Positions 27,462 through 62,240 of a DNA stretch of 64,000 nucleotides are shown here, one piece after another. The notes under the pieces are model-generated. The model searched no databases and was not told where the DNA came from. It saw only the letters and a program-made list of their open reading frames with translations. The translations under genes and the position numbers were made by a program. Source of the DNA: Alphaproteobacteria bacterium (GTDB lineage: Bacteria; Pseudomonadota; Alphaproteobacteria; G965222575); NCBI GenBank assembly GCA_965222575.1, contig OZ244958.1, positions 64,001 through 128,000 on the forward strand. Reading direction: 5' to 3'. Within the stretch, counting starts at the first letter, position 1. Each line of letters begins with the position of its first letter.

Positions 27462-27633
27462 TTATCACCCTTATAGGCACAAAAACTACTCATTAGGTCT
27501 GAGAAGGTAGGCATTTTGTGGTTCTTAAAGCCCTTCTCATCTACAAATAATAATCATACTTACTCTCTTTCTGCAAGCTATTCCTATCCGCACACCACTG
27601 ATTTAAGTGCTACTCTACACACAAAGGCAAGAT

Positions 27634-29181: not shown

Positions 29182-29224
29182 AAGACCTCCGCTACTGCCT
29201 TGTCCTATATTGTCATTCTGTTAG

Positions 29225-29252
29225 AGTATGACTCTCTCGGGTCTCCTGTCAA
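29225..29252 (-). promoter_or_regulatory. Putative promoter of ankyrin gene 29181
   Basis: TTGACA-N16-CATACT on the minus strand; GGAGG RBS before the ATG. Confidence 0.5.
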
Positions 29253-29275
29253 GTCAAGCCTTAAGACACAAAGGC
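29242..29275. repeat. 34-bp perfect direct repeat, second copy at 30378-30411
   Basis: TCTCCTGTCAAGTCAAGCCTTAAGACACAAAGGC at both sites, each adjacent to an ankyrin 3' end. Confidence 0.9.
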
Positions 29276-34500: not shown

Positions 34501-35210
34501 TCCTCGGCGAGATTTACGTTTTCATCTTTGTCATCTTTCGGCTCTCCATTAGGGACAAGCATTCTGATTTCATTGTCTCTTATAGCTTCTGCTTCCCTGG
34601 CAAAACGCGTTGCAGTAACACTTATAAGGCGAGCTGTACCAGCCTTTTCTCTTGCGAACTGAGCCTTAGAATGTATCTCGGCAACTGTTATGGTGTCTTG
34701 AGTAGTTTGTATGTCATACAGAATTTGTCTGATTTCTTCCAAGGCATTTTCAGCTTTTAGCTCTTCAGTATTTGCTAAGATGAGTAATTTGTCCAGCTGT
34801 TCAGTGTTTGCCGCCCGCACGGGAACTTCTAGAGCAGCTGCAATTGTCTCCGCTGCTACCGCCGCCGTATTGGCTTCCTTGCGCGCTGTTACTGCCTCCG
34901 AAGCCGCATCATCCGCCTCGTCGGCCTTGTCAGCATTATGGTCTCTGAGTGCTTCTGCTTTATTCGCCGCAACGCGTGCCACTCGAGCAGCTCTTTGAGC
35001 AACAATAGCTGCATCCCTCGCAATCTTTGCCTGTTCCCGGGCTTCAAAGGCAGTAACATCATCCTTTGCTGCCGCCTTTTGCGCCGCTTCCGCCGCCTCT
35101 TTCGCCGCTATTGCTTTGTTTGCCTGTATTCTCGCAACAGCAGCCCAACCACTTGCTTTTACCTTTTCTTCGTCAGCTTTTTGAACGCCAGCCTTCAGTT
35201 CTTGATACAA
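31590..35210 (-). CDS. C-terminal part of giant autotransporter: Ala-rich stalk end, S8 subtilase, beta-barrel-like C-terminus
   Basis: GKGVLVGVLDS (Asp), FHGTIV (His), DTSIAVPIVSGAAALL (Ser), GVDEVFGHGLLN; ends FSFSFSYRF. Confidence 0.85.
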   Translation of the reverse strand: MYQELKAGVQKADEEKVKASGWAAVARIQANKAIAAKEAAEAAQKAAAKDDVTAFEAREQAKIARDAAIVAQRAARVARVAANKAEALRDHNADKADEADDAASEAVTARKEANTAAVAAETIAAALEVPVRAANTEQLDKLLILANTEELKAENALEEIRQILYDIQTTQDTITVAEIHSKAQFAREKAGTARLISVTATRFAREAEAIRDNEIRMLVPNGEPKDDKDENVNLAEDIIDAVNGATLKANQAHMLASEIETIAIYAENAEKTFTQGVTNDKFTVFSYVEPKYTRKTGNDESFFYVWDSGQIFSDEALPNISHNDHLWKFIRKRGEHTVKVKTSKMIYLGWSNPYHPKRDSHWDTDWSSLTEQQAQDIYDARYENAFQHIGYRYNAQIFDMIGVAHAYARGITGKGVLVGVLDSHFVKKLMQGMGVTDENWNEVILPPKGDRDFHGTIVSRIIASGKTHYSGKTDEELVENMAGIWPHGVAYNAEIFPLDIRKYLTRIVTHELKTREDPVPVNEIRTNFNNEFGLFRQHLDSIDNSIDIVNISLSDADNQQDNTVEQLIEYFTHEGILVVSALGNRNRNEPRTPSTPAAGAYLPKFYGRVLAVGAADIKEVFAWDDDRSVERVHLTRSADFSRWCGEAKDFCLFAPVVVNSERLVNIAQVERSRWSGPDAGTPSYYVTPRSSYGLLSKSGFVWHPHSDGENGIEKQQNSDGEYYYTHEGDSGGKLNTHNPAFDTSIAVPIVSGAAALLKERWPSLKAEDIAQVLLQTADDIGAPGVDEVFGHGLLNIRQALSSIGVQKVPAVGGVSARSASAVPITPKLSFIVPPSLGDALHNQPLSITVLDDFNRDFSYSLYKGFLGFAQVKSLQFFVPAGKQVATRHTLFGGRLNLHLQYWQTPGLDVPLPDELQQIMEQKSSEEAKRSLGLSFSWRASGTLYRFGLGTKAKGKPYIAGETVLGLYHSMPQETQITPNYSLSVQRSVKNVGNVTLGLTMANRQYVEHFDQSYSPGGYRLYVAYSHYPIQLETGYIQDFRSVAGITGRELLDVGHGKTLYLNLQTSLHFRSVTFLGSYYVSRAVSAEADSGWFKKLEVLSRSFGLEGQWRVSEEGDRVTFGFSRPLRSTLDMGVWDMGIDEEGHYLWDLKPRNTAPSGSERLFFLSYEKSGTIQSLKLLGGLRLERGHRKEVLPERFFSFSFSYRF

Positions 35211-46097: not shown

Positions 46098-48881
46098 CTA
46101 TTGTGTGCGATGAGTGTGGAGAATATCCTCTAAAGCACTGATATTTTTCAATACATCACATGCCCAAACACCAAAGCCTCTATCGTTATTAACAGCCTTT
46201 ACCCATTGTTCTAGGAACTTTTGCTTTGCTTTATCACTCTCTTTTTCTTTTCCTTTCACCTCTAGTATTAAGTGCATGCCCCCCTTCAGACGAATGAGAA
46301 AATCTGGAACATACTTCCTTACTATCCCCTGATAGAAATACGGAATCTCAAAACCAATATGGTCATTCTTCACCCAAGCCTCAACCAAGTCACTCCTATC
46401 CAGTGCATATCCAACGCTTCCTTCCCATGTGCTGTCATAGACACAAAAATTGATGTGGCTTTTTTTTGTTTTGCCACAAGGTTTTCCTGTATACCATAAT
46501 CCCATATCTGCTGTACTGCTTCTAGGCCTTTCATTATCTAAAATCACCTCCCTTGATTTGACATTTTCAAAGCGGATAGCAGACCAGATATGATTGACAA
46601 TACGATTCATATTCAATATCATCACCAAGCGGCGTTTAAGTTCATCTTTGTTCCACTGCTTTGGGATAATAGAAAGTGTCTCTGAGGCCATAAAATCCTC
46701 CACCAGTCCTACGAGCTGGGCAAGAAGAAAAGATTTAGCCCCTTTCCAGTTTTCCTGCATTTGCTCATAGACCTCTTGGGCTGTTTGAAAGAGAACCTGC
46801 TCTGTGCGGCGCTCTTGTGCTAGGAATTCAAGGGTAATATCTTTACTTTTTGAGACATCTTCTTTTCCTTCAATAGAAGGCGCTAGCTCTGCGATTTGAG
46901 GCGTATCAGCAGCGGATAGCTCTAAGGAATCAATTTTACTCCAGTCCAATGATAGGATTGGGCAGTAGATCTGTTCTATGCGGTCAATGTTTGGCCATTG
47001 GAGAGTGAGATGCCCTCGGTCTTTGAGAGGTTCTATAGCAACCTTTGGCTTTTGAGGAGGAGGCGCTGCGCCTTCCTGAGATTCATGAGGCAGGAAGGTA
47101 AACGGAATACCAAAGACATTGACATACTCCTGCTCAAATAAGCCTGTCTCAGGGTTAACCTCATAAGATATGCGCCGCAAGCCTCGCCCAACGACTTGCT
47201 CACAGAGCAATTGTGATGAGAACGCACGCAATCCCATGATATGAGTGACTGTTTTCGCATCCCACCCCTCCGATAGCATGCCAACAGCAATAACATTCTG
47301 TATCTTCCCCCCGGGCTGGCCTTTTTTTCCCACCGTATCCACTTGCTTGCGTAAGGCTTCTGCCCGCTCTTGCTTGTTTTTCGGCGGCGCTGTAAGAGAA
47401 AAAGAGGATACCTCCGCTTCCTCCGCTTCCGCTAAGACCTTTGAGTCAATATGGAGTATGCCATCTTCCTGACACAGCACAGGAGTAGGGATTTTGTTTT
47501 TGACAAAGGCATGTTTAATCCGTGCCGCCACCTCTGTCCGATGAGCCACTGTAATCATTACAGGTGGAGTCGGGGGGCACTCAGGATTTTCTGCCCACTT
47601 TTCCCTCGTTTTATCCCAGTCACCGCCAAGGAAAGCATAACCCACCATCAATAAATGAGGTAAAGGACTTGTATTATCTTTTCTGTTGAGGTCATCTTTG
47701 ATGTTTGGGTACAGATGATAGAGTTTGGATTTATAGGTCTTAGGGTCAATACCTACATCATCCCGCACAACCACACGAGGTGTTTTCACCAACCCCGATT
47801 CAATAGCATCAGACAAACCGAAATCACTGACAATCCAATGAAATAAGGTCTCCTGTGTGCTCTTTTTCCCTAAAGGAATAAAAGGGGTAGCCGAAAAATC
47901 ATAAGCCCTCAATATGCGCCGTGCCTTGTGGATTTTATCCAACCCACCCACCCATTTTGTGGCTTGCTCTTTTTCCTCTTTTTTGACACCCTTGATTGTG
48001 ACTCCCTCTTGAATCCGCCACGCATGGTGCGCCTCATCATTGATGACCAGAATATTACGGGCAGTGCTGCCTATCTTTGAGCCTAATACCCCACGGGCAT
48101 AAGCCTCATGACTTTTCACCCCCCTCTTGTCAACACTTTTTCGCTTTTCAAGCTGTTCCTCCGTCTCCCAATCCAATTTATGCCAATTATGAATCACCAC
48201 CTTCCCCCGCCGTAATTTCGGCATAAGATAAAGAGGTACTATAGGAAAATCCCTATAATAATAGGTCTCCCATAGCTTCATTCCTTCAAAAGGATACGGG
48301 TCTAAAACAGACAAACGCTTTTTCACCGTCAAGCCCGGCGCAATAACCAAAATATGCTTGGAAAACCGCTTATCCTTTGAATATGTCACCTTATTCAATA
48401 CCTGCCACGCAATCAGCATTGCCATCACAATAGTCTTGCCCGTGCCGGTCGCCATCTTAGAACACACCCGCTCAAAATCCCCCCCATCAGAAGGAATATC
48501 AATGCCCACTCGCTTCGACTCCGGCGCCTCCACTAGCCAAATCAAAGTCTCTATAGCCTCTATCTGACAAAAGAAAAAGCGCGCAGGAGAGGCATGTTTG
48601 TCTGCCCAATGCTGTAAGAGCGTGCGTGTTATTGTCGTCACACCCGGATAATCCTGCTCACGCCACACTTTCACCCGCTTTCGTATCTCGTTGGCTAAAG
48701 GAATTTCTATGAACTGCCCGGGGTCATTAAAAGACTCTGCTCCCTCAGTTGCTACCGTATACCCAGCAGGACGCCGCCCTTTTTCAAGAGTAAATTCCTG
48801 CTTTTCATGCCAATACCCCCAATGCTCCGAAGGCTCCTCATAAGGCGAGTTTATAACAAGCTTCTCTATCTTTTTTGTCAT
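46098..48881 (-). CDS. Type III restriction endonuclease (Res)
   Basis: KMATGTGKT, DEAHH, SATP, EGWD, C-terminal PDF...EVKG nuclease motif; coupled to mod. Confidence 0.88.
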   Translation of the reverse strand: MTKKIEKLVINSPYEEPSEHWGYWHEKQEFTLEKGRRPAGYTVATEGAESFNDPGQFIEIPLANEIRKRVKVWREQDYPGVTTITRTLLQHWADKHASPARFFFCQIEAIETLIWLVEAPESKRVGIDIPSDGGDFERVCSKMATGTGKTIVMAMLIAWQVLNKVTYSKDKRFSKHILVIAPGLTVKKRLSVLDPYPFEGMKLWETYYYRDFPIVPLYLMPKLRRGKVVIHNWHKLDWETEEQLEKRKSVDKRGVKSHEAYARGVLGSKIGSTARNILVINDEAHHAWRIQEGVTIKGVKKEEKEQATKWVGGLDKIHKARRILRAYDFSATPFIPLGKKSTQETLFHWIVSDFGLSDAIESGLVKTPRVVVRDDVGIDPKTYKSKLYHLYPNIKDDLNRKDNTSPLPHLLMVGYAFLGGDWDKTREKWAENPECPPTPPVMITVAHRTEVAARIKHAFVKNKIPTPVLCQEDGILHIDSKVLAEAEEAEVSSFSLTAPPKNKQERAEALRKQVDTVGKKGQPGGKIQNVIAVGMLSEGWDAKTVTHIMGLRAFSSQLLCEQVVGRGLRRISYEVNPETGLFEQEYVNVFGIPFTFLPHESQEGAAPPPQKPKVAIEPLKDRGHLTLQWPNIDRIEQIYCPILSLDWSKIDSLELSAADTPQIAELAPSIEGKEDVSKSKDITLEFLAQERRTEQVLFQTAQEVYEQMQENWKGAKSFLLAQLVGLVEDFMASETLSIIPKQWNKDELKRRLVMILNMNRIVNHIWSAIRFENVKSREVILDNERPRSSTADMGLWYTGKPCGKTKKSHINFCVYDSTWEGSVGYALDRSDLVEAWVKNDHIGFEIPYFYQGIVRKYVPDFLIRLKGGMHLILEVKGKEKESDKAKQKFLEQWVKAVNNDRGFGVWACDVLKNISALEDILHTHRTQ

Positions 48882-51448
48882 TGTTTCAGGTCTAAAAGCC
48901 GTAAGGACTCAATGCCGCGATTATCCACAATCTTGACCGCTATACGCCTATACTCCCCAGCCTCAAAGGGCAAGGATATCGTCCCCCTATACGCCTCTAT
49001 ACACTCCTCCTCTATCTCCGCTTTCAAGGTTTTTCCCAAACGCTTCCAGTTGTGCTTATCACTAGCTAAAGGAAAAAAGACCTGAGACGGAAAAAGGCTA
49101 CGCCCATCATAATCCGTATCCAACATCCACATGGCAATGTCTTCTTTGTCACCAGATATCAATCTCACTTCCCCACCAGCCCTCGTCTCATAATAATCAA
49201 ACCCCCGCACCTCAACCCTATACTTGCCATCCCCCTCCCGCACTATCCCAACGTCAGGCTGCCCCATTAACCAAAAACTACTCACCCCCCTCGGTTTCTT
49301 TTTCAAATCCTCCACCAACAAATCCGAATCCATATACACCTTAAACAAAGACACTCCCGTCCACTTGGCCTCTTCTATGTCCCGCGCCGCCTCCGGGTCA
49401 AACTGAAACGCCGCAAACACCACACTCTCAGGTTTAGGTTTCAAAGACTGCGCCTCTTCTAAGGCACGCTCTACCTGTAATGTCCCTAAAGGACTATAAG
49501 TCGGCGCAAAAGATAAAACAACGCGCTTGTTCTCATGGGTGTAGGCATCCGCATGGAGATAGGTGTGACAGCTCAATGGCTCCATGCGCGAGAACTCCAG
49601 TACCTTTTTTCCTCCCTTAGAACGAATGCCAGAGGAAAGTAATTTCTCCCGCCATTCTGCCTGTCTTGTGGTCTCTTTTTTCCGACTGATAGAGGAGGGA
49701 GGTGAAGTGAGTACGCCATCCTGTTGCTTCCCTCTTTTCAGAACATCTTGAGGGCTTTCCACAAAAGGCGCCGGCACAGCCTCCACTGTAAAAGGGCCTG
49801 TAACGCGGACTTTGCTACTATCTTTTTTAGGCTTATCATACAATGTTTCCTCTGTTTCCTGCGACGCATAGCAGTCAATAGCCTCCTTAATAGCCTCACG
49901 GCTCATCCCCTCCACAATCTCAGGATTGTTGGCAATAGAACCTAAGGTCACATGGGGAACCGTTTTGTAGTCAAACCCACTGCTAACGCCATTTTCAGGG
50001 TATTGTAAGTGATAATAATCAAAAGTAGCGGTCATGAGTCTTTGCTTGGCTAAAGTGATGGCAACCCGAGAAGTATCACAAGTAATCCAACGCCGTCCCC
50101 ATTGTTCTGCTACAAAAGCTGTTGTGCCACTGCCGCAGGTCGGGTCAAAAACCAAATCCCCCGGGTCTGTACACATCAACAAACATCGTTGAATGACTTT
50201 TTCTGAAGTCTGAACAACATAACGCGGATTCGTTGCCCCCTGTGTATCAGTCCAAGAATTATGAAGAGTGTGTACAGGAAAGTCATCAAAGAATAAAACA
50301 TAACTAGGTACTTTTGCTTTACCAGACATACTTAGTCTGTTTGCCCAAATAAGGCGTTGCATTCCTTCCTTTGTGGTTTTCCAGCTCTTATGAGATTGTT
50401 TTATTGTCTTTCCTTCAAATTCAAAATCATAAAAGCAAGTGGCTGTTTGGCCTGTAGATAATAAGTCGATAGTGCGAAAATGGCGGGCATTTTTTGGGAT
50501 GTTGCCGTCCTGTTCTTCACGGGTCATTTTGCGTCTTGTGCCATCTGGCTCCTCCAGATAGGAGTACATAGTGCCTTCTCCAAAGGCTCTTTCTTTATAA
50601 AGTTTTCTGAATTTCATCTTCTCCTTATCTTTGGCATACCACACAAGATAATCACAAATTCCGGGCAGGCCTGAAGTCCCAAGAGGAGGAGTCTTTCTGA
50701 AGGTAATCAAAGAAAAGAAATTATCTTTACCAAAGACTTCATCCATAAGGTTACGGATGAGGTGGAGGTTTTCATCGCCAATTTGGACAATACAGCTACC
50801 GCTTTGTGTGAGAAGGTCGTGGGCAAGGAGGAGTCTATCGCGCAAGTAGGTGAGATAGGAGTGTATACCTAGCTTCCATGTATCGCGGAAGGCGCGGATG
50901 GTTTCCGGTTCTTGGGAGAGGTCTTTATCGTCTCCATCTTTGACATCGCGTTTGTTGGTAAAGGGTTGGAAGTTAGAGCCATATTTTATGCCGTACGGGG
51001 GGTCTATGAAGACCAGTTGGACTTTGTTGCCTAAGCCTTCACGCTCGTACAGGCTATTCATTACCAGCAGACTATCGCCGGCGATGAGCCGATTACTCCA
51101 GTTGTGTTGGTGTTGATAGAACTCTATGGCTTCCCGCAAGGGAAGGGGGTTTTGTTTAAAGAGGGATAGGGTTTGTTTAGGGGGTTCGCCATTGTGTTTA
51201 CGGATAGCTTTGATAATGGTATAGGGGTCTATGCACTCGTGGGTGTGTAACGATACGGTATCGATGGAGAAGGCTTTACTTCGCTCTATTTTTTCAGCCC
51301 AGTCTAGTTTAGGGTCTAGGTGAGGGTCGTATGTGTATTTTGTCTTGTAGCTTTTTAGTTCTGTGTCTTTGTTGACAAGCCCTATGGGGGGATTATTGAA
51401 TCGCTTTTTTCCTTCGTGGATATAGTTCTTAATTTCTTTCCTTGCCAT
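48878..51448 (-). CDS. Type III adenine methyltransferase (Mod)
   Basis: FIDPPYG precedes FDPTCGSGTT (beta-class order). Confidence 0.9.
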   Translation of the reverse strand: MARKEIKNYIHEGKKRFNNPPIGLVNKDTELKSYKTKYTYDPHLDPKLDWAEKIERSKAFSIDTVSLHTHECIDPYTIIKAIRKHNGEPPKQTLSLFKQNPLPLREAIEFYQHQHNWSNRLIAGDSLLVMNSLYEREGLGNKVQLVFIDPPYGIKYGSNFQPFTNKRDVKDGDDKDLSQEPETIRAFRDTWKLGIHSYLTYLRDRLLLAHDLLTQSGSCIVQIGDENLHLIRNLMDEVFGKDNFFSLITFRKTPPLGTSGLPGICDYLVWYAKDKEKMKFRKLYKERAFGEGTMYSYLEEPDGTRRKMTREEQDGNIPKNARHFRTIDLLSTGQTATCFYDFEFEGKTIKQSHKSWKTTKEGMQRLIWANRLSMSGKAKVPSYVLFFDDFPVHTLHNSWTDTQGATNPRYVVQTSEKVIQRCLLMCTDPGDLVFDPTCGSGTTAFVAEQWGRRWITCDTSRVAITLAKQRLMTATFDYYHLQYPENGVSSGFDYKTVPHVTLGSIANNPEIVEGMSREAIKEAIDCYASQETEETLYDKPKKDSSKVRVTGPFTVEAVPAPFVESPQDVLKRGKQQDGVLTSPPSSISRKKETTRQAEWREKLLSSGIRSKGGKKVLEFSRMEPLSCHTYLHADAYTHENKRVVLSFAPTYSPLGTLQVERALEEAQSLKPKPESVVFAAFQFDPEAARDIEEAKWTGVSLFKVYMDSDLLVEDLKKKPRGVSSFWLMGQPDVGIVREGDGKYRVEVRGFDYYETRAGGEVRLISGDKEDIAMWMLDTDYDGRSLFPSQVFFPLASDKHNWKRLGKTLKAEIEEECIEAYRGTISLPFEAGEYRRIAVKIVDNRGIESLRLLDLKQ

Positions 51449-51688: not shown

Positions 51689-53588
51689 ATGAAATCTACC
51701 TCTCTTTCTTCTATGGCCAAGGGAGAACAAACCCTCCTGAAAGTCAATAGCAAAGGGGAAATTACACAACCCTTCCGTGTGGACACCTCACAGGAAAAGG
51801 TCAGAATTGTCAAAGCCCAATTCTTCAAAAAGGTACAATTTTTCTTTCGCGGGTTGACAGAAAAAGGCAAGTGTAAAAATAATCAGGCACTCCGCCAACA
51901 ACTGCAAAAAGCCTTACAGCATAAATACGGAACAAACGCAGGGGAAAAAGCCGCTCACCACATAGACAAAATAGGCACGCACCCCTTAGAAAAAACACCC
52001 CTCACTTGTAGAGAAGTCAGTTGTATGATGGCCTTCGGAAAAACTTTGAAACACTTGGAAAAGGGCGCTCGCACCCTTAGAAATCACTCAGACACTCAAC
52101 CTTACAGAGAAGGCCTAAAACGCGCACTCGCCTTTATAAACCAAAAACTCAATCCCCAAGCAACCATTCCTAGCACAACAGACAAACAAGAAGCCGCCCA
52201 TATGCTAGCGGAAATCTGCCCCCAGCAATACAAAACACACCTCAAAGACGGCAACTTGACACTCCTTCAAACACTCACACACTATCTCCAAGAGGGCGTC
52301 TCTCACCTAGAAGCCAACGGCAATCCTTTACCCACTTGGAAAACCTTCCCTTCAGACGCATTCCTATACCAAGCACTCAAACAAGCACAACACTATGAAA
52401 ACAACCTCCTACAGACTTTCCCGCATTCACAAACAAAACCGCCTCTCAACACAGAATGGATACAAGAAGAACTCTCTCCTAATAAAAAAACTTTAGAGGA
52501 TTTTCAGAATGCCCCCGCACCAGTCCAAGAGCAAAAAACAGATATCAATGCCAATTTGTCTCCTGCTACTACTCCTGAAACAGAACCCGCATCCTTCCAC
52601 TATCGGATAGCCTCCTAAACCTATCTCTTGAAGATACCCAACAGCAAGAAACAGATATCAATGCCAATTTGTCTCCTGCTACTACTCCTGAAACAGAACA
52701 TCCTCACACAACCCCTAGACCTATCTCCTTGAAGATATCCAACAGCAAGAAACAGATATTGATGCCAATTTGTCTCCTGCTACTACTCCTGAAACAGAAT
52801 ATCCTACACTATCGGATAGCCTCCTAAACCTATCTCTTGAAGATACCCAACAGCAAGAAACAGATATCAATGCCAATTTGTCTCCTGCTACTACTCCTGA
52901 AACAGAACATCCTTCACTATCGGATAGCCTCCTAGACCTATCTCTTGAAGATATCCAACAGCAAGAAACAGATATTGATGCCAATTTGTCTCTTGCTACT
53001 ACTCCTGAAACAGAACATCCTTCACTATCGGATAGCCTCCTAGACCTACCTTTTGAAGATATCCAACAGCAAGAAACAGATATTGATGCCAATTTGTCTC
53101 CTGCTACTACTCCTGAAACAGAACATCCGCACAGAATCTTCCACTATCAGATAGCCTCCTAGACCTATCTCTTGAAGATACCCAACAGCAAGAAACAGAT
53201 ATTGATGCCAATTTGTCTCCTGCTACTACTCCTGAAACAGAACATCCTCCACACAACCTCCTAGACCTATATCCAACAGCAAGAAACTATTGATGAAGAT
53301 ATCCAAGAAAAAGAAACAGATATTGATGCCGATTTGTCTCTTGACGATACCCAAGAAACAGATATTGATGCCAATTTGTCTCCAAACCTATCTCCTGAAG
53401 ACGATATCCAACAGCAAAGACTCCACGCTCAACGTCTCAATCCCGACTTGCCAGTTCAAGAACAAGAAACAGATATTGATGACGATTTGTCTCTTGACGA
53501 TACCCAAGAAACAGATATTGATGCCGATTTGCCTCCTATTACTCCTAAAGAAGAGTTAGCCGCAAGAACAAGAGTAACAGATGTATAA
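51689..53588 (+). CDS. Effector-like protein with acidic repeat tail, frameshifted inside the repeats
   Basis: ORF 51689-52618 runs into the ETDIDANLSPATTPETE repeat, which continues in other frames (52770-53162, 53334-53588). Confidence 0.6.
52530..53560 (+). repeat. 108-bp (36-aa) tandem repeat, about 7 copies plus degenerate tail
   Basis: GCCAATTTGTCTCCTGCTACTACTCCTGAAACAGAA core; exact 108-bp spacing in the central copies, indels in the outer ones. Confidence 0.9.
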
Positions 53589-53604: not shown

Positions 53605-54183
53605 CTAGTCATAAGTCTTAAATTGAGAGACGAAAAAATCAACAATCTTCTGATAGCCCTTTTGCTTTGCAATATCAAGAGGGGTACGTCCGTGATTATC
53701 TTCGGCAAAAAGGCTAGCTTTCTTCTTAACAAGAAGACGAACAACCTCCAAATGACCACGCTCAACAGCAATATGTAAAGGAGTTTCACGCTTTTTCGTC
53801 TTAAAATTCACAGTGGCTCCCGCCTCAATTAAAATCTTCACCGTTTCTTTCTTGCCGCCTAAAGCCGCATAGTGTAAAGGCACATGTCCTACATTATTTT
53901 TCACATCCAGTGTCATCCTTTCTTCCTGAAACATCTCTACAAACAGTAAAGTCGCCTCCTTAGAACGAAAAGCCGCTAAATGTAAAGGGGTATTGCCATT
54001 TATATCCTCTTCAAAGATATCTTCTCCCTCCTCAAGGAGGAGTTCAATCTTTTCCATATCCCCCCGTGCAGATGCTCGATGAAGAGGGCCAGCCTCTCCT
54101 TCTAAAGCGAAACACAATAGTGCCGCCATCACTACACTACTAGGAAACCACCTCTTCTTGCTACTGCTCATCAATAGTGCCAT
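53605..54183 (-). CDS. Secreted ankyrin-repeat protein (4-5 repeats)
   Basis: Signal-like N-terminus; GNTPLH, PLHYAA, ETPLH, GRTPLD. Confidence 0.9.
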   Translation of the reverse strand: MALLMSSSKKRWFPSSVVMAALLCFALEGEAGPLHRASARGDMEKIELLLEEGEDIFEEDINGNTPLHLAAFRSKEATLLFVEMFQEERMTLDVKNNVGHVPLHYAALGGKKETVKILIEAGATVNFKTKKRETPLHIAVERGHLEVVRLLVKKKASLFAEDNHGRTPLDIAKQKGYQKIVDFFVSQFKTYD

Positions 54184-54279
54184 TCTTTCCTTTCAATACC
54201 CACGCGCTCATTGTAGTGGAATCCTTTCTATAAGGGTAGCCCTCTTTCAATTTTTAGTCAAAAAATCTCATAAAAGCTT

Positions 54280-55566
54280 TCAGCCCTTATCTTTCAAGGT
54301 GAGAAATTCGTATGGTAAGGGAGGGTTTCTAAATCCCCACAGTGCTAGCATGAGTGCAATTGTTCTATCCGCATGATGATGACCTGAGTCTGCGATAATT
54401 GTCACCTGTCCTGTTGCACTCACGGTCTCTTTGAGACTCATGATATCTTCAAAAAGGTCGTTATCATCAGGCAAGCGGATTCTGTCTTCCTCAAAAAGCC
54501 TGCGCCCCCATGAAAAAAGCTGTTGCTTACTTTTGTGCGTAAACAGAAACCCTTGACATGACTCTCCCATTTTCCTCTGTATTTCTTCTACAAACATTTC
54601 TCCCATCCCCCCTTGGTCAATGAACACCTGAATAGGGCTATACCGCTTGATGGTGTCAATGAGAAGACCTTGCTGCTGTTGAAAGGACAAGTTACGCTTA
54701 GCGAGAATTTTTCTTACCCAGAAAATGTCTTGTGCCTGTTCAACCACAGCAATGCAAAAGAGATGATTGCGGCGCCCCACATCAACGCCTATAGTAATAC
54801 GCCCCCCTGACAAGGGAGGAAACTTCAGCCTTTGGGCTCCCTTGACTTTTTGCCCCTCAAAGACCGTTTCGTTTTGAGAGAGAAACGAGACCTCAAATTC
54901 CTGCTTCCAGATACCCTGATGGTCACAGCCGCTCCTTAAGTGTTCAATATCAAGGTCAAGTCCCATCTCAACAGCTTGGTAAATGTTGACTTTGGACCGA
55001 AACCACGCTTTATTAGAGGTGTGAAAAAGGCTAGAGAAGCGTCCCGTCAAGCCAGCAGGCGTAGAACTTATCCAGCATTTTTTCCCATGAGACGTCACAG
55101 GATAAACAGCTTTCCAGACATCATGACTTTTGTGGTGGTGTGCGAATTCGTCCAGATAGACATTGCGCGTATACCCTCTAGCAGCTTCCGCATTGGCAGG
55201 AAGAGCCGTAATCGAAGCCCCATTACAAAAGACAACAGAGTACGCTTTAAGAGAAGAAATTTCCTCTTCTTTCCAATGAGTCTTATCAGAAAGCACATCA
55301 TGATAAGCCCGATTAAGCGCAAACAAAATAGGCTTGATGCAATCATTCAATATCATACGCGCTGAGCGTTCATTCACAGAAATAATCAACCAGCTGTTTT
55401 TATCTCCCTTAAGAATCCCATCAAGAATATCAGACACAATGCCCACAGCATGGGTATAGGTCTTGCCGGTTTGTCTTGCCCAGCAAGCAATCTTCAACCT
55501 GTGCGGCGCTTTCAGGTAGGCTTTCTGATAAGGCAGAAGACGAAGCGTGTAGGCACTGGTTTTCAC
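54280..55566 (-). CDS. Phage large terminase, Mu gp28-like
   Basis: LLPYQ, WARQTGKT (Walker A), ARGY..NVYLDEFAH (Walker B), ISSTP; nuclease acidic motifs GVDVGR, IDQGGMG, HADR. Confidence 0.88.
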   Translation of the reverse strand: MKTSAYTLRLLPYQKAYLKAPHRLKIACWARQTGKTYTHAVGIVSDILDGILKGDKNSWLIISVNERSARMILNDCIKPILFALNRAYHDVLSDKTHWKEEEISSLKAYSVVFCNGASITALPANAEAARGYTRNVYLDEFAHHHKSHDVWKAVYPVTSHGKKCWISSTPAGLTGRFSSLFHTSNKAWFRSKVNIYQAVEMGLDLDIEHLRSGCDHQGIWKQEFEVSFLSQNETVFEGQKVKGAQRLKFPPLSGGRITIGVDVGRRNHLFCIAVVEQAQDIFWVRKILAKRNLSFQQQQGLLIDTIKRYSPIQVFIDQGGMGEMFVEEIQRKMGESCQGFLFTHKSKQQLFSWGRRLFEEDRIRLPDDNDLFEDIMSLKETVSATGQVTIIADSGHHHADRTIALMLALWGFRNPPLPYEFLTLKDKG

Positions 55567-55574
55567 CTCTGTGG

Positions 55575-55856
55575 TTACCGCTTTTTCAGGGATTCAATAT
55601 TTTGATTTAGAGACTTAAGAGTGTTTGCTAAATTGCTCACTTCCGTTTGCAAAACAGCAAGTTTCACTTTCACCTCCTCTACAAATGCCTGAGAGACCGT
55701 ATGTTCTTCCATGCGTATCAGGCGTTCTTGTAAGGAGGAAAAATGCTTTTTTGAGGCATATAAGGACTGTAAGCGCCACATGAGAGAAGAGACCAAAAAG
55801 CCTAAGACCATAAAGGCAGGTATCCATAATAACCGCAGGATTTCAAACCATTTCAT
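55575..55856 (-). CDS. Small TM + coiled-coil protein, resembling small Mu-type phage late proteins (DUF2730-like)
   Basis: N-terminal TM, YASKK, ERLIRMEE, heptad tail; lies between portal and terminase. Confidence 0.5.
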   Translation of the reverse strand: MKWFEILRLLWIPAFMVLGFLVSSLMWRLQSLYASKKHFSSLQERLIRMEEHTVSQAFVEEVKVKLAVLQTEVSNLANTLKSLNQNIESLKKR

Positions 55857-57055
55857 GAAGGAGAAGACGCCGGATGAGGAAGTCCTAAGATATTGCGCAC
55901 CACATAGTGGTCAATGGCAATCCCTCTATCCATAGCATTGAAAACATCCTGAATTTTGACACGAGTGGGTTCTGTGAGGCTCAGTCTTGGGAGGTGTGTT
56001 TGCACACCAAAATTGACCTGTATCATAAGAGGAATTAAAGAGGTATTAAAGGTCTCTTCTATAGCCGTGGCATCTGATTGGAGGAGTGAAGCTCTAATAC
56101 GGTCATGGACTTCGGCTTGAGCCCTTGAAGACCCATGGTCTGTGGTCATGGTTTGCCCTAAGATGAGTTTAGAAATCTGTAGATTACAATAGTCTAAGAG
56201 CTGCAGATGATTAGAGGAAGTGGCTTTGGTGTCTCTGATAAGATTGATATCCATAGATTTTGGAACAGCAGCCACCATAGAAGCATTGATTTCGCGCAAG
56301 GCACGCAAAAGGGTCTGTTTATCCTCTTCAGAGGCATCCGGCCCGAACTTGCCTAACCGAATAGGTTTTCCGAAAAGCTCAAGATATTCCATCCAGTCCT
56401 TCAGACAAAATTGCTGAAAAAACCACAGCATAAGAGCAGGGCGCGCCAAGCCATTACGCAACAAATTGCTATCAGATTTCCCGTTATGAACATGCAGAAG
56501 GGCTTGATACGGTTTCAACGGGAGACTCTCCCCCTCCTCAGAGAGAAGAGACAGCCTTCCATTAGAAACCTGAAAGAAACTCTGGTCAGCCCACTCAAGA
56601 TGAGGCAGCCAGTACTCTTGATACCGCCACGAAATGGAAAAAACGGCAAACCCTTTCGCAAGGGCATCAAGCATCTGAAACAGTAATTGTTGAAACTTAG
56701 TTTGATGAATCCACCGGGAGACAAAATCAGCATGCACAAGAGCAGCTTTAGTCGTGTCAGCAGGCGAAATCAAAGGGGTAAGCTGCGCCGTTTGTTGCTT
56801 CCTAGTAGTAAGAACCGCTACATAATGCGGCCACCTTTCTTCCATACTTTGCGCTAAGCGAAAAAAAGCTTGACCATCTCCCATATCCGCAAGATGAAGA
56901 GCCCTGTTGATAACAGCAGGCGTTTGAGGCAGATGACCCTCCCAAAAATAACACTGAGGCGGGTATCTCTTCTTAATGTTAGAACAAAGTGCAGAGGATG
57001 TACCCCCACCTTTCTTGAACAAAGACAAATCCGCTCTTTTCAGAAAATTGAACAT
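55853..57055 (-). CDS. Phage portal protein, DUF935 / Mu gp29-like
   Basis: MLDALAKGF, GLAR, DWMEYLELFGKPIRLGK, QISKLILGQTMTT, SRAQAEVH, SDA..IEETFN..LIP. Confidence 0.88.
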   Translation of the reverse strand: MFNFLKRADLSLFKKGGGTSSALCSNIKKRYPPQCYFWEGHLPQTPAVINRALHLADMGDGQAFFRLAQSMEERWPHYVAVLTTRKQQTAQLTPLISPADTTKAALVHADFVSRWIHQTKFQQLLFQMLDALAKGFAVFSISWRYQEYWLPHLEWADQSFFQVSNGRLSLLSEEGESLPLKPYQALLHVHNGKSDSNLLRNGLARPALMLWFFQQFCLKDWMEYLELFGKPIRLGKFGPDASEEDKQTLLRALREINASMVAAVPKSMDINLIRDTKATSSNHLQLLDYCNLQISKLILGQTMTTDHGSSRAQAEVHDRIRASLLQSDATAIEETFNTSLIPLMIQVNFGVQTHLPRLSLTEPTRVKIQDVFNAMDRGIAIDHYVVRNILGLPHPASSPS

Positions 57056-57140
57056 AAAACACCAAGGATAAAGGAACCTCTATAGTGCCACAGGTAAAAA
57101 CGAAAAGTTCAGAGGTACTTAACTACTCCCCTCCGTTAGC

Positions 57141-57893
57141 CCCTTCAATAAGGGAAAGGGGGGGGGGATGAGCCCTCCTTTGTGGAGAATAAAGTGAATC
57201 CCGTGTGTGACTTGACAGGACGCCTCCCTTCAATAAGGGAAAGGGGGGGGGATGAGCCCTCCTTTGTGGAGAATAAAGTGAATCCCGTGTGTGACTTGAC
57301 AGGACGCCTCCCTTCAATAAGGGAAAGGCAGGGGGATGAGCCCTCCTTTGTGGAGAATAAAGTGAATCCCGTGTGTGACTTGACAGGACGCCTCCCTTCA
57401 ATAAGGGAAAGGCAGGGGGATGAGCCCTCCTTTGTGGAGAATAAAGTGAATCCCGTGTGTGACTTGACAGGACGCCTCCCTTCAATAAGGGAAAGGCAGG
57501 GGGATGAGCCCTCCTTTGTGGAGAATAAAGTGAATCCCGTGTGTGACTTGACAGGACGCCTCCCTTCAATAAGGGAAAGGCAGGGGGATGAGCCCTCCTT
57601 TGTGGAGAGAAAAGTGAATCCCGTGTGTGACTTGACAGGACGCCTCCCTTCAATAAGGGAAAGGCGGGGGGATGAGCCCTCCTTTGTGGAGAGAAAAGTG
57701 AATCCCGTGTGTGACTTGACAGGACGCCTCCCTTCAATAAGGGAAAGGCGGGGGGATGAGCCCTCCTTTGTGGAGAGAAAAGTGAATCCCGTGTGTGACT
57801 TGACAGGACGCCTCCCTTCAATAAGGGAAAGGCGGGGGGATGAGCCCTCCTTTGTGGAGAGAAAAGTGAATCTCATGCGTGACTTGACAGGAC
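57141..57893. repeat. 9 x 84-bp near-perfect tandem array
   Basis: Units start at 57141, 57226, 57310, 57394, 57478, 57562, 57646, 57730, 57814; variants change in blocks along the array. Confidence 0.97.
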
Positions 57894-57999
57894 TAGGTTG
57901 TGGCATTTTTCCCATAAATCTTTGGCACAAAAATAAAGTAGCTCTAAAAAGGCTTACGCTCTTTATGAAAGAGTGTCTTGATAAGAAAAATCAAAATCC

Positions 58000-60900
58000 A
58001 TGATATATCCTGTCGTTGAACTGGTCTTAAACAACATTCCCTATGATTTATCAGGGGCCTTGTTATCCTTTGAAAGGCACGCAAGAGGGGTCACCTTTAA
58101 GTTTAAGGCAGAAGGTCTTCCTTTAGAAATACACCCTCTTGACCAAGAATGGATAGGGGGACTGTTATGGCTGAGGGAAGAGGGAGAGCGGAGAAAAAGC
58201 AAGATAGTAGAGCAGCCTACCTTATCAGAGCATATTGTGACGGTACAGGGGTTGCAAGGGACGCAGACCGTGTTATTAGGCAACAGGCTAGAGGATGCGA
58301 CCTTACTGTTACAGGCTACGCAGGAAGATGTCTTATTATTGAACCTTATCAAAAAGAATGACCGTCTATTATTAGAAGAAGTGGAGCGCTATCAAGAGGT
58401 TATCTTTGGGTCTTTACCTTGTGTATTGAAGCCTTTATTTCGCTCTCCATATGGCACCTTATCAGAGGCTGTGGGGAAAGGAGAACTGGTGATTTTCTTA
58501 GAAAATCTTTCTCAATTGTTTCCCACAACAGGATATCTCTTAATAGGAGAGGAAGAATACACCATACAAGAGCGCAGGATTTTTCAGGAGGAGAGGCCTT
58601 TCATCAGTATAACACTAGCCTCAAAGACCCTCAAAAGCTATAAAGCGGGAGAGGCGGTGTTTCTTAGTCGTCAACCGTCATGGTGGATTGCCCCAACAGG
58701 CACCACAGCCCTTGAGATAGGAGAGCAACGTTTAGAAAAACAGAATGCACAAGAGAGCATACCAATAAGTGGGGATGTGTTCTTGCCTTGTGGCGTGGTG
58801 CGGTTATGGGGAAAAGAAAGAGCTTTGGAAGATTGCGGCTCACTCCAGACTTTGCTGGAGTTTGACGATGCAAGCCAGTCCACCTCACTTAATCCCTCTC
58901 ACGCCATAGGAGCTGTACATCGTACCATAACACAAGCAATCGGCGATGCTACAGTTGAAATGAGTGAAGACGCAGCGTTGACTTTCCCCGCTCTTCCGGA
59001 AAGCTCTTTGGAAGTACGTTACGCCTTTTCCTATGAAGTAGGCAATATTCCCTCACTTGGAGTGACAACAATCTGGGTTGGAGACCATGTCATTTATAAC
59101 CAGCTAAACGACTCCGTGCTGTATAATCCTCAAAAAGTACAATTCACAGATAGTCACTTCAAAGGCATACTCATGCCTGTAAAATTCAAAACCACAGGCC
59201 TCATCACAGGGGATACCCCCTTTGTGACTTTTCGCAATGTGCACCGCTTCGTCAAAGAGGGGCACAACAATGATAATCTCTTTTCCAGTATTGGCAAAGG
59301 ACAAGCCTTAAAAGCAACTCTTAAGAGTCCTGTGGATAAGCTTGGTCGACTAGAAAAGGCAGAGGCCGTGGTACAGTATTTTTTCAATAAGCGCCTTAGC
59401 ACATCGGAACGCATCCTTATACAAGGATACAACGGCCAAAAGCGCTACACCTTATTGACAGCGCAAACAGCTGGAGGCCTAGCAGGAGAAGACAGAACGC
59501 AAGAACTTGCGTTTCCATTCAACACAGGCCATGCCTTCTTAAGTAATCAAAACATCTCAGCATTGATATCAGGCGGTATTGCTACGTTAACAAACCTCAT
59601 GGGTAAGCAAAAAGAAACCTTTTTCATACCGCCCTATCAAGTCGAAAAAAACAATGGGAGTTACACCCGTTTCAGCAACATGGAATTTTTACCGCCGGTG
59701 AATCTCAACACATCAGAGACTCATAAACTCTGGATATACTTCCAGCCAGTACCAGTAAAAGACCTTCTTTACATGAATGCCAATGGCATCAGACTAGTAA
59801 GTCATGGGAAGTTCAAAAGCGACGCCACACTTCGAAATCTCCTCAACTACTCTACTCACACTCACCAACGCACGCGATCTTGGGATTCCACAAGAAAAGA
59901 GTCAATTTTAGATGTTTCCTCTGGAAACGTTAATAGAAACGGAGGATTAAGAGGGCCGTTTGTCTTTAACCATAAAAACGCGGCATTACCCCTTCGCTTT
60001 GCCTGTCCACCGGAGAAAGACCCTTTCCAGACCACAAAAACACCAGGAACAAGTATCTACATGATTCAACCTCTGTACCCGCAACCAAATCCAGCCTACA
60101 TCATCATAGAGTGGTCTATTATCCCTCCTTCTTTCTCCAGTACAAAAGCCTCCGGAAAATTGCAAATCCTTAAGCCAAATTTACCATTGAAAGGAGAGTC
60201 AAAAACAGAAATAGACCTCTCAACACACTCACAACCCACAAGAACAACGACAAAATATCTTCCGCTGGACTGGATACAGGAGTTATCACAACTCAACAGC
60301 CTCCTCTTAGAAGTGTCCCTTCAGTCCACTACCACCCCTAGTAATATCAGACTCAATGTTGTACGTTGTCTCCTGCGGATAACGTATCAGGAGCAATGCT
60401 ACAAGCCGGTACACTCACACTGGCTGCTATGTCACAGTAGTGGGCGCTTAGACGAGATACTCACCACTCTAAGCCACCGATTAGGTCTCTCTTTTCGAAA
60501 AGAACACAGTGTCGTCAGTATAGGCTTTGACACTGTCCTAAAAGGTCTTTTGCCCGGGAATCAAAACTGCTGGAAAGTCCTATCGGAACTCTGTGAGATG
60601 CTGGATGGGGGATGGAGTGCAGAGGACGGATTACGCCTGTACGATAGAAGAGACGGACAGGTTGTCAAAAGTTTTACCCCTGGAGATTATAAGAGCTTTT
60701 CCGTACACTTCAGCGATAGCAATGAGCGTTGTCACAACGTGCTCATCACCTTCGGTAAGGAAACAGAGAAACAATACACATATGTCTATCCCTCTCCCTC
60801 AGAAATTCTCAAGCGCCACAGTGCACGTGACCTCTCCTTTTCCATAGCAACTCTTGATAAAAATCCCACACCCGCCAACACCAAAAGCTTCAAGTTTCCT

Positions 60901-61155
60901 TGGCAAGTAGAGAAACAAACAGGAGAAAATATTGCCAAAAGACTATACCAACGATACGCAACATTGCGCCGCACCATCACCCTCCTCTTACCCACTCCTT
61001 CCCCTCTGAAAACAGGAGATAAAGTCCTAATATCCCTCCCCTCCATGAAAGGAGAATTCCTCAAAGCCGTCATCACTTCCACAAACAACCAAGGCCTTCA
61101 GTGTGAAGAAATCCCACACCACACCACTCCCTTCACTGGCACAGCACTAAAGTGA
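58000..61155 (+). CDS. Large phage tail-tip/baseplate-hub-like protein
   Basis: 1051 aa, beta-rich; C-terminal VLSELCEML...FPWQVE...IAKRL...TITLLLP...LKTGDKVLI resembles tail hub domains; faces away from the portal gene. Confidence 0.5.
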   Translation: MIYPVVELVLNNIPYDLSGALLSFERHARGVTFKFKAEGLPLEIHPLDQEWIGGLLWLREEGERRKSKIVEQPTLSEHIVTVQGLQGTQTVLLGNRLEDATLLLQATQEDVLLLNLIKKNDRLLLEEVERYQEVIFGSLPCVLKPLFRSPYGTLSEAVGKGELVIFLENLSQLFPTTGYLLIGEEEYTIQERRIFQEERPFISITLASKTLKSYKAGEAVFLSRQPSWWIAPTGTTALEIGEQRLEKQNAQESIPISGDVFLPCGVVRLWGKERALEDCGSLQTLLEFDDASQSTSLNPSHAIGAVHRTITQAIGDATVEMSEDAALTFPALPESSLEVRYAFSYEVGNIPSLGVTTIWVGDHVIYNQLNDSVLYNPQKVQFTDSHFKGILMPVKFKTTGLITGDTPFVTFRNVHRFVKEGHNNDNLFSSIGKGQALKATLKSPVDKLGRLEKAEAVVQYFFNKRLSTSERILIQGYNGQKRYTLLTAQTAGGLAGEDRTQELAFPFNTGHAFLSNQNISALISGGIATLTNLMGKQKETFFIPPYQVEKNNGSYTRFSNMEFLPPVNLNTSETHKLWIYFQPVPVKDLLYMNANGIRLVSHGKFKSDATLRNLLNYSTHTHQRTRSWDSTRKESILDVSSGNVNRNGGLRGPFVFNHKNAALPLRFACPPEKDPFQTTKTPGTSIYMIQPLYPQPNPAYIIIEWSIIPPSFSSTKASGKLQILKPNLPLKGESKTEIDLSTHSQPTRTTTKYLPLDWIQELSQLNSLLLEVSLQSTTTPSNIRLNVVRCLLRITYQEQCYKPVHSHWLLCHSSGRLDEILTTLSHRLGLSFRKEHSVVSIGFDTVLKGLLPGNQNCWKVLSELCEMLDGGWSAEDGLRLYDRRDGQVVKSFTPGDYKSFSVHFSDSNERCHNVLITFGKETEKQYTYVYPSPSEILKRHSARDLSFSIATLDKNPTPANTKSFKFPWQVEKQTGENIAKRLYQRYATLRRTITLLLPTPSPLKTGDKVLISLPSMKGEFLKAVITSTNNQGLQCEEIPHHTTPFTGTALK

Positions 61156-61927
61156 GAGGAAAACCTCCCCCACACAGCGTTACCCGTGCGAAGAAAACCT
61201 CCAGTATAGGGGGGGCTGAGGTGACATTGGGGGGGTTCACCCGCACAGCATTAAAGTGAGAGAAAAACCTCCCCCGCACAACGTTACTCGTGAGAGAAAA
61301 AATCCAGTATAGGGGGGGCTGAGGGGGATATTAGGGGGGGCTTCCCCCACACAACGTTATTCGTGAGAGAAAAACCTCCCACACACAGCGTTACCCGTGA
61401 GAGAAAAACCTCCCCCGCACAACGTTACCCGTGCGAAGAAAACCTCCAGTATTAAGGGGGGCTGAGGGGGATATTGGTAAGGCTTCCCCCGCACAGCGTT
61501 ACCCGTGAGAGGAAAACCTCCCCCCCCACACAGCGTTACTCGTGAGAGAAAAACCTCCCCCGCACAACGTTACCCGTGAGAGGAAAACTTCCCCCGCACA
61601 ACGTTACCCGTGAGAGGAAAATTCCAATATAGGGGGGGGCTGAGGGGGATATTAGGGGGGCTTCCCCCGCACAGCACTAAATTGAGAGAAAAACCTCCCC
61701 CGCACAACGTTACCCGTGCGAAGAAAACCTCCAGTATAGGGGGGGGCTGAGGTGACATTGGGGGGGTTCACCCGCACAGCACTAAAGTGAGAGGGAAACC
61801 TCCCCCGCACAACGTTACCCGTGCGAAGAAAACCTCCAGTATAGGGGGGGGCTGAGGTGACATTGGGGGGGTTCACCCGCACAGCACTAAAGTGAGAGGG
61901 AAACCTCCAGTATTAGGGGGGCTGAGG
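61138..61927. repeat. Mosaic tandem array of a ~34-bp unit and a ~40-bp G-run unit
   Basis: CCCGCACAACGTTACCCGTGAGAGGAAAACCTCC variants interleaved with AGTATAGGGGGGGCTGAGG(TGACA/GGGATA)TTGGGGGGG; first unit supplies the stop codon of ORF 58000. Confidence 0.92.
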
Positions 61928-61961: not shown

Positions 61962-62240
61962 TTATGAGTGTTCAAGATGGTGTTGATAAATTTTTCCATT
62001 GAGTTTTGAGAGATGACGGGAGACAGTTTTCTTTTTCAGCACGCCACAACGGACACCTTTATCCATTTCAGATTGTGCCTGTTTTAATAAGGCTCTTAAG
62101 TCTTCTTGGGGAAGATTGTTCTCTAATCCGCTGCGGACTTTTTTCATAAAAGTACTAATGCGGCTTTTTCTAGACTTATTTCTCAGTGTCCTTGTCAAGG
62201 TTTGACGATAGTGTTTTTTTGTCGCTTGGGTGTTTGCCAT
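61962..62240 (-). CDS. rpsT: 30S ribosomal protein S20
   Basis: MAN...KK..RQ....LRNKSRKSRIST, GVLKKKTVSRHLSKL. Confidence 0.9.
   Translation of the reverse strand: MANTQATKKHYRQTLTRTLRNKSRKSRISTFMKKVRSGLENNLPQEDLRALLKQAQSEMDKGVRCGVLKKKTVSRHLSKLNGKIYQHHLEHS

Follow-up and report, generated by a model that had tools for sequence, protein, structure and literature searches.

The subject of this analysis is a group of phage-type genes in a 64,000-nucleotide stretch of DNA from an alphaproteobacterium (assembly GCA_965222575.1). This stretch, referred to here as the window, comprises bases 64001-128000 of a single 1,215,846-bp contig (OZ244958.1; 45.7% G+C, 97.6% complete), and coordinates are those of the window unless they are given as genome positions. 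Four co-oriented minus-strand open reading frames (ORFs), spanning 53605-57055, encode in order of reading a Mu-type portal, a small DUF2730-like protein, a large terminase (TerL) of the FluMu gp28 type and an ankyrin-repeat protein (Table 1). The portal stop and the start of the small gene overlap by 4 nt, read as ATGA, and 8 bases separate the small gene from TerL, which begins with GTG. The tight coupling of these three genes was described in an original prediction made from the sequence alone, and both coordinates and sequence bear it out. Its naming of an ankyrin gene and rpsT as neighbours is right too. The ankyrin gene lies 96 nt beyond TerL on the same strand and may be co-transcribed cargo. 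That prediction saw in the locus a minimal, rearranged Mu-type packaging module, possibly a domesticated phage or a gene transfer agent (GTA)-like system, and the evidence presented here concerns what kind of element the module is and whether it is still kept by selection.

Table 1. Coordinates of the module, its neighbours and other phage-derived loci of the genome
Feature	Position	Strand	Description
108/216-bp tandem repeat array	52524-53252	.	flank of the module on the ankyrin side
Ankyrin-repeat gene	53605-54183	-	192 aa; Ank families, E down to 6e-32
Large terminase TerL, FluMu gp28 type	54280-55566	-	428 aa; Terminase_6N + Terminase_6C, PHROG 2
DUF2730-like small gene	55575-55856	-	93 aa; N-terminal transmembrane (TM) segment + coiled coil
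Mu-type portal	55853-57055	-	400 aa; Pfam Portal_Mu (PF06074), PHROG 113 'portal'
84-bp x 9 tandem repeat	57141-57893	.	98% matches; separates the portal start from the 1051-aa gene
1051-aa protein gene	58000-61155	+	possibly tail tip / central fibre (gpJ-like), unproven; directed away from portal
105-bp tandem repeat array	61140-61908	.	between the 1051-aa gene and rpsT
rpsT	61962-62240		family match; ndk and pepP come after, beyond 61.9 kb
Locus C	genome 141501-148419	-	20 kb from the window portal, 13.5 kb past the window end
Locus B	genome ~283-302.2 kb	-	~19 kb, ~180 kb from the window module; second Mu-head/P2-tail late region
S24 repressor-like gene	genome 593729-596044		ankyrin neighbours; 43-aa tape measure protein (TMP) fragment
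Duplicated GH108 lysozyme	genome 939-941 kb		
Third phage type	genome 954051-972332		lysozyme, 151-aa gene + DUF6127 cassette, Fic/DOC-MerR, gpJ-like, DUF1833, fibres
Primase-helicase, 792 aa	genome 987760-993352		with Mu DNA-binding domain; DUF6996/6997, Dam methylase, SocA-like, 44-aa protease fragment

The order of the genes is unlike that of their relatives. A search of genome contigs and viral contigs with the single TerL protein returned no close relatives, and the TerL loci of 80 relatives were gathered with an alignment as the query. In 74 of these loci a portal comes directly after TerL, in most cases with MuF, protease and capsid next in line, and in none of the 80 is a portal, MuF or capsid found upstream of it; the remaining six have no portal match, and three of them lie at contig ends. 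The proposal that the order is rearranged relative to Mu-like phages thus stands. Upstream of TerL, 15 of 16 sampled relatives have gp27 (Phage_Mu_Gp27, the small terminase, TerS) and 12 have DUF2730, the usual order being DUF2730, a gene of about 100 aa, gp27 and TerL. The order in the annotated Rhodovulum phage vB_RhkS_P1 is identical, and the canonical arrangement can be written as releasin (DUF2730)-gp26-TerS (gp27)-TerL-portal-MuF-protease-capsid-adaptor-neck-terminator-tube-TAC-TMP-J. Measured against the relatives, where DUF2730 comes ahead of TerL and the portal after it, the portal-releasin-TerL arrangement in the window is the releasin-to-portal segment circularly permuted; gp26 and gp27 have been lost from it, and the portal ends directly behind its mature core. 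When 2512 ORFs from the 80 relatives' loci were compared with the genome by tblastn, TerL and the portal were the only matches at genome 117-122 kb.

The identity of the portal is clear from its match to Portal_Mu (E=5.8e-79, 266 bits against a cut-off of 23.9 bits), and it shares 32-36% identity with the portals of the phages vB_RhkS_P1, RC1, POA1180 and JBD30. The prediction of a 400-aa portal therefore holds as to family, but the protein is shorter by about 100 aa or more than all 66 relatives whose portals could be delimited. Those are 472-994 aa long (median 514), and each extends at least 102 residues beyond the end of the window protein, which stops 5 residues past the last block that it has in common with other portals. 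What is absent is the C-terminal ~100-150 aa of the relatives, a part that consists of a variable linker followed by a segment of ~75 residues found in ~90% of 38 aligned relatives. In the Mu virion, according to PMC11915804, the last 124 residues of gp29 are missing, which is ascribed to cleavage by protease I. Among PDB sequences the window portal matches 8rka_A (5.5e-35) and 9khx_X (4.1e-31), and the alignment spans residues 41-410 of the 526 of the JBD30 portal and begins at residue 43 of the Mu portal. An AlphaFold (AF2) model built from 32 sequences (pLDDT 74.6, pTM 0.70) is closest in fold to portal chains as resolved in virions, that of JBD30 (405 residues) first and those of Mu (369-383 residues) next, at TM-scores of 0.60-0.65. 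The window protein takes in all of the portal that is resolved in mature virions of Mu and JBD30. The gene therefore encodes an essentially mature-form portal, the only part absent being one that mature virions are also without.

The small gene between portal and TerL encodes a 93-aa protein with a hydrophobic N-terminal (TM) segment and a coiled coil. Its match to DUF2730 is below the cut-off (19 bits against 24.9 bits), and it matches phrog_736 at 1.3e-7. We place it in DUF2730, an assignment that is weak by score and clear by position. The prototype of this family, Mu gp25, is described in PMC9239132 as a membrane-tethered 'releasin' required for release of the SAR endolysin. The ORF was also considered as a frameshifted C-terminus of the portal and this was ruled out, the best match being E 1.5, to the portal of a second phage locus (locus B, see below).

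TerL is of full length, since the 119 homologues listed, with 425-496 aa, cover 91-100% of it; they go under the name 'FluMu gp28-like' in their sources, and the best identity among 5.8 billion proteins is 42%. All 78 columns that are invariant over an alignment of 27 sequences (26 relatives and the window protein) are kept, as they must be by construction. Among the invariant stretches are RQTGKT (31-36), LDEF (138-141) and residues 168-170, which we take to be the Walker A, Walker B and STP coupling motifs, and D262, D317 and D400 are presumably the acidic residues of the nuclease. With these labels, the claim of intact ATPase and nuclease motifs is upheld. TerL, the DUF2730 gene and the 1051-aa gene are each present in one copy in the genome, and TerL is the sole terminase found. 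When 722 long ORFs are ranked by how well their synonymous codon choice fits that of the genome, TerL reaches the 87th percentile, the portal the 68th, the genes of locus C the 42nd-69th and those of locus B the 9th-29th. This suggests either a long residence of the phage from which the module derives or a phage long adapted to its host.

No TerS, protease, capsid or transposase lies at the window locus, as had been predicted, but the genome holds capsid, protease and tail genes elsewhere, and the proposed search for Mu-like versions of these genes finds them at two loci, C and B. Together with the window module, here locus A, they belong to at least six phage-derived loci, which include truncated and frameshifted genes and gene fragments of 43-44 aa. 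Genome-wide, a second Mu portal and two Mu-type capsids were recovered, and the HK97 capsid family had no match in the genome. Between loci A and C lie rpsT, ndk, pepP, rmuC, mreB, gpmI, two ctpA-like genes, phoX, holC, pepA, secG and pyrG. Locus C consists, in sequence, of genes for a tube-like protein, a 128-aa protein, two small ORFs, protease I, decoration, a capsid of the gpT type (312 aa), a gp36-like adaptor, neck, tail terminator and a TMP fragment. Language-model features of the ~310-aa protein match Phage_tube_2 clusters (0.97), which is a lead only. The 128-aa protein weakly matches a PHROG whose annotation is tape measure, and its position, as in vB_RhkS_P1, is the sole ground on which we would call it TAC-like. 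The content is that of a Mu-like siphophage such as vB_RhkS_P1, but with tube and TAC permuted ahead of the protease. Locus B comprises a portal, MuF fused to a PBECR2 nuclease domain, a methylase fragment, protease, two cement genes, capsid, S, terminator, V, W, J, I, a SocA-like (SocA/Panacea) gene within the tail module, fibre, chaperone, sheath, tube, TAC, TMP and gpU, and ends with ORFs of the length expected for X and D. The identity of loci A and C to locus B is 45% for the portal, 48% for the capsid and 42% for the protease. Because these values run parallel across the three genes, the sequences are consistent with A and C coming from one phage, which we call phage 1, and B from another. 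At genome 954-972 kb the gpJ-like protein has 599 aa with FNIII-A_GpJ and Phage-tail_3 domains, and three fibre genes (1517, 2110 and 832 aa) have collagen repeats and S74 chaperone ends; all frames are open there. The suggested check for absence of a transposase gave a mixed result: no rve-family transposase was found in the genome by a search whose control was positive in 7 of 14 genomes, while DDE_2 and Mu-transpos_C also had no match in the genome, their controls being silent too.

Strain variation was read from contigs of runs X1 and X2, both from one study, and X3, from another, in which the locus is nearly identical; the coverage by X3 and by a further run, X4, is of low depth and restricted to parts of the stretch. 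A single X1 contig (53502-57135) covers the ankyrin gene, TerL, releasin and portal, and an X2 contig (54074-57135) covers TerL, releasin and portal. Both are colinear with the window. Because single contigs cross the genes without joints or indels, the arrangement is real and misassembly is excluded, which removes one way in which the original prediction could have failed. We found 10 single-nucleotide polymorphisms (SNPs) and no indels. One SNP lies between genes, the ankyrin gene and the portal have one each (P66S and Y384H, respectively), and the other seven are in TerL. The seven in TerL are all synonymous; for the six transitions and one transversion observed, a neutral gene would yield this outcome with P=2.1e-4. 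No second TerL-like contig of at least 80% likeness was found in the run of X2.

Run X3 carries a different organism label. Its low-depth contigs are ~100% identical to TerL and the portal and turn to unlike sequence inside the ankyrin gene (at 53799 and 53840) and at 57076, 21 nt upstream of the portal start. The flanks of the module may therefore differ between hosts or strains.

The 1051-aa gene was called tail-hub-like in the original prediction. Its opposite orientation stands, whereas the label has weak leads behind it. The protein has no Pfam or PHROG match and none in 50,697 phage records, and a profile of its family has none in PDB sequences. Only three homologues (989-995 aa) were found among 1.84 billion representatives, with E from 2e-8 to 1e-3 and full-length alignment, and a search for their genomic context in viral and metagenome contigs confirmed nothing. 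Phage-tail_3 is matched weakly by two of five family members (best E 0.0016), and by language-model features the protein is nearest to viral tail-protein clusters (0.92); its AF2 model is unusable (pLDDT 37). Since Mu-like siphophages close the tail module with such a protein, it is plausible that this is a gpJ-like tail-tip protein of phage 1. A 273-aa ORF at 57182-58003, inside the interval of the original prediction and not named as a gene there, was rejected as a gene, as it is the translated 84-bp x 9 tandem repeat. The three repeat arrays around the module are alike in kind and unrelated to one another. Repeats common to several loci, as regulatory or recombination sites, were ruled out, each array being found once in the genome, and a scan for promoters and terminators gave no signal exceeding that of shuffled sequences.

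These results point very strongly to the module being part of the late region of a prophage of the transposable, Mu-like siphophage kind, rearranged and with internal deletions, in a genome filled with phage debris, and not an isolated minimal system. The idea of an independent system clean of such debris does not survive the finding of truncated and frameshifted genes at the other phage loci. The scatter of the genes would most simply be put down to Mu-type replicative transposition and to recombination among copies of the phage, with later deletions in a shrinking genome. The module also has the features by which defective or cryptic prophages are recognised: a non-canonical and incomplete arrangement, truncated genes, and no means of autonomous replication found. 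On balance we favour the view that TerL, and probably the whole operon, is still under selection for some function. TerL would not be dead, in that it is the sole copy, its catalytic residues are kept, its codons are host-like and its differences between strains are synonymous only. Both parts together, a scrambled prophage fragment whose sole terminase is still selected, have in our estimate a probability of roughly 0.55. Our best guess for that function, a more tentative suggestion which we would not press, is that the portal core and TerL still work with the head genes of locus C to build and fill heads, as a replication-dead apparatus like that of a defective phage. Working tails are doubtful. 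The earlier idea of dispersed genes that are selectively kept is sustained in part, by the strain variation of TerL and the head genes of locus C, and fails for the tape measure, V and J, which are broken.

A number of observations weigh against continued selection and function. Gene order is scrambled, TerS is gone, the portal is shortened, loci B and C contain broken genes and TerL is divergent, all of which are signs of decay. The C-terminal domain that the portal is without occurs in every one of the 66 relatives, and assembly may require it. TerL is altered at 28 of the 82 columns that are invariant in 78 relatives (54 kept) and at 87 of the 187 that are at least 90% conserved in them (100 kept), columns of which the relatives themselves retain 88-100%. 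With the set of 26 relatives the corresponding figures are 37 of 115 invariant columns and 77 of 172. Other phage proteins of the genome deviate too, but less (columns kept: capsid of locus C 41/52, capsid of locus B 37/52, portal of locus A 39/54, portal of locus B 34/54, MuF 20/22). This divergence fits relaxed constraint and an acceleration in the lineage equally well. No gp27 small terminase was found in a six-frame search of the genome with PF11985 (the best score, 16 bits against a cut-off of 28, lies within a 1539-aa frame), and MuF was found at locus B only, with no MuF of the phage-1 type. The TMP of phage 1 at locus C is a 225-aa fragment. At locus B the portal frame lacks ~76 N-terminal residues, has no ATG, GTG or TTG for 113 codons and abuts an ankyrin gene; J is split into two overlapping ORFs and V appears frameshifted. 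Tiny gene fragments (a 43-aa piece of TMP at 596 kb and a 44-aa piece of protease at 992 kb) indicate ongoing decay. The strain variation itself can also be read differently. The sole portal SNP is nonsynonymous, and a single X2 contig, which has none in the portal, accounts for six of the seven TerL SNPs, clustered within 535 bp. They may be one tract imported from a functional phage and not the product of selection in place. In the case of a single recombination tract, the constraint would have acted wherever the donor allele resided.

The same facts make up the case for the strongest rival, in which the three genes are non-functional leftovers not yet disabled and the synonymous variation of TerL is imported by recombination or historical. 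The scrambling, the loss of TerS, the shortened portal, the altered conserved columns, the broken phage genes throughout the genome and the clustering of SNPs are all as such a relic would have them. This explanation has to be taken seriously, and we nevertheless hold it to be the less probable one. Zero nonsynonymous changes among seven has a probability of ~2e-4 under neutrality, and no second TerL was found in the genome, nor among strain contigs of at least 80% likeness. Across the three genes about 2.8 kb of coding sequence runs without a break and with clean junctions, the truncation of the portal falls exactly after the mature core, and codon usage is fully host-like.

Two further explanations keep the module in service as part of a particle. 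The first is a domesticated Mu-derived head-packaging apparatus in a bacterium of the intracellular type, in which a mature-core portal, releasin and a TerS-independent TerL would, with the heads of locus C and possibly the tail of locus B, produce DNA-filled particles; we consider this improbable. The second, improbable too and if anything a shade more so, is a dispersed, domesticated Mu-derived GTA-like system in which loci A, C and B together supply complete, transfer-competent DNA particles. For this it can be said that structural genes are spread over several loci, that no transposase or replication module was found, and that TerL is single and selected. There are also two capsid/protease sets with intact frames, and a contractile-tail module that is nearly complete from sheath to gpD. 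The objections are more numerous. Neither a full-length portal nor a TerS was found, V and J carry frameshifts and of the phage-1 TMP a fragment is left; the head sets occur in duplicate and are not streamlined, and fragments of 43-44 aa are scattered in the genome. As to replication functions, the genome does hold, at other positions, an S24 repressor-like gene and a primase-helicase that has a Mu DNA-binding domain. None of 40 other genomes searched is nearer than the same class, and only three of them have a distant portal homologue, of 22-35% identity. Complete GTA-like particles are unlikely because the tape measure, V and J are broken, and with the loss of TerS, the TMP fragment, the frameshifts and the debris a GTA or cargo-delivery particle therefore stays a minority reading.

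It is also conceivable, though we rate it as quite remote, that TerL, alone or along with the portal core and the membrane protein, has been exapted for another role than the filling of heads, for example as a membrane-associated nuclease/ATPase with DNA as its substrate, or that the operon is kept for expression of the ankyrin gene. The selection signal is found in TerL only, TerL is unusually divergent and TerS is lost, and the ankyrin gene follows closely downstream on the same strand; however, expression of the ankyrin gene would not constrain the protein sequence of TerL, and the catalytic motifs of both TerL domains are as in packaging enzymes. A complete Mu-like prophage split or permuted by misassembly is barely credible, for although the flanking tandem repeat arrays could mislead assemblers, contigs of two runs are colinear, the genome is one 1.216-Mb contig and 20 kb of housekeeping genes lie between A and C.

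The scrambled prophage fragment that we favour can be compared with three known types of system. With the Mu-like siphophages vB_RhkS_P1, Rhodobacter phage RC1, Ochrobactrum phage POA1180 and Pseudomonas phage JBD30 it shares the families Portal_Mu portal, gp28-type TerL and DUF2730, and locus C supplies the same protease I, decoration, gpT capsid, adaptor, neck, terminator and ~310-aa tube. Unlike in these phages, the portal is ahead of releasin and TerL, gp26, gp27 and a phage-1 MuF are absent along with the C-terminal ~100-150 aa of the portal, the genes are spread over two loci 20 kb apart, and no transposase, repressor or Mor/GemA was found with the queries used. RcGTA, which is of the HK97 type, is resembled in that phage head and packaging genes lie at several loci with no replication/integration module found, and in a TerL under purifying selection; it differs in that the portal and capsid here are of the Mu type and the gene set is incomplete and partly broken. 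The head and packaging genes of Wolbachia phage WO are lambda-like, whereas those found here are Mu-type. The likeness to WO-like islands and degraded prophage WO (PMC9203015) lies in the P2-like tail module of locus B and the GH108 lysozyme.

The wider surroundings contain other accessory genes. At 46098-51448 on the minus strand, genes for a ResIII helicase-like protein (927 aa) and an N6_N4 methylase (856 aa) share 4 nt, and the two, 2.2 kb from the phage module, look like a type III-like restriction-modification pair. An OLD-family nuclease (AAA_15 + TOPRIM, 578 aa) adjoins two ankyrin genes (515 and 329 aa), at 25725-30264 and 17612-18613, just past a tRNA-Pro gene; between 25 and 61 kb the window has the look of a single accessory island. 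A large family of subtilases (S8) or kindred proteins, with a common C-terminal region of ~450 aa, is present at 31590-35210 and 42609-45527 and at genome 41-60, 356-360 and 737-739 kb, one paralogue being 76% identical to a window copy. A family of 249-aa ORFs has seven copies, one at genome 150096-150845 beside locus C and the others, 56-73% identical to it, at 272, 273, 389, 392, 396 and 520 kb. Ankyrin genes are very numerous, with dozens of tblastn matches and big arrays at genome 870-877, 942-954 and 1139-1143 kb. At loci A and B and at 593 kb they stand directly beside phage remnants, an arrangement reminiscent of phage-linked modules for interaction with eukaryotes. The lysyl-tRNA synthetase at 6866-8437 is of the class I type (tRNA-synt_1f), which would fit an alphaproteobacterial or Rickettsiales-like background.

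If the module is a relic only, it is an ordinary product of prophage decay and is mainly a record of Mu-type phages scrambling small genomes. If TerL and the trimmed portal are truly selected, they would represent a rare retention of the packaging machine of a transposable phage after the phage itself had been dismantled, in a reduced and ankyrin-rich genome. They would then provide a Mu-type portal that is 'minimal' by nature and a terminase apparently able to do without its small subunit. Were the domesticated apparatus, which we consider improbable, to be true, it would mean a GTA-like origin from a transposable phage, independent of the HK97-type GTAs and with ankyrin genes as linked cargo. 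Retention under selection would also bear on the recycling of phage parts in symbionts, both as a possible origin of GTA-like systems and with respect to phage-linked cargo that targets eukaryotes, as in phage WO.

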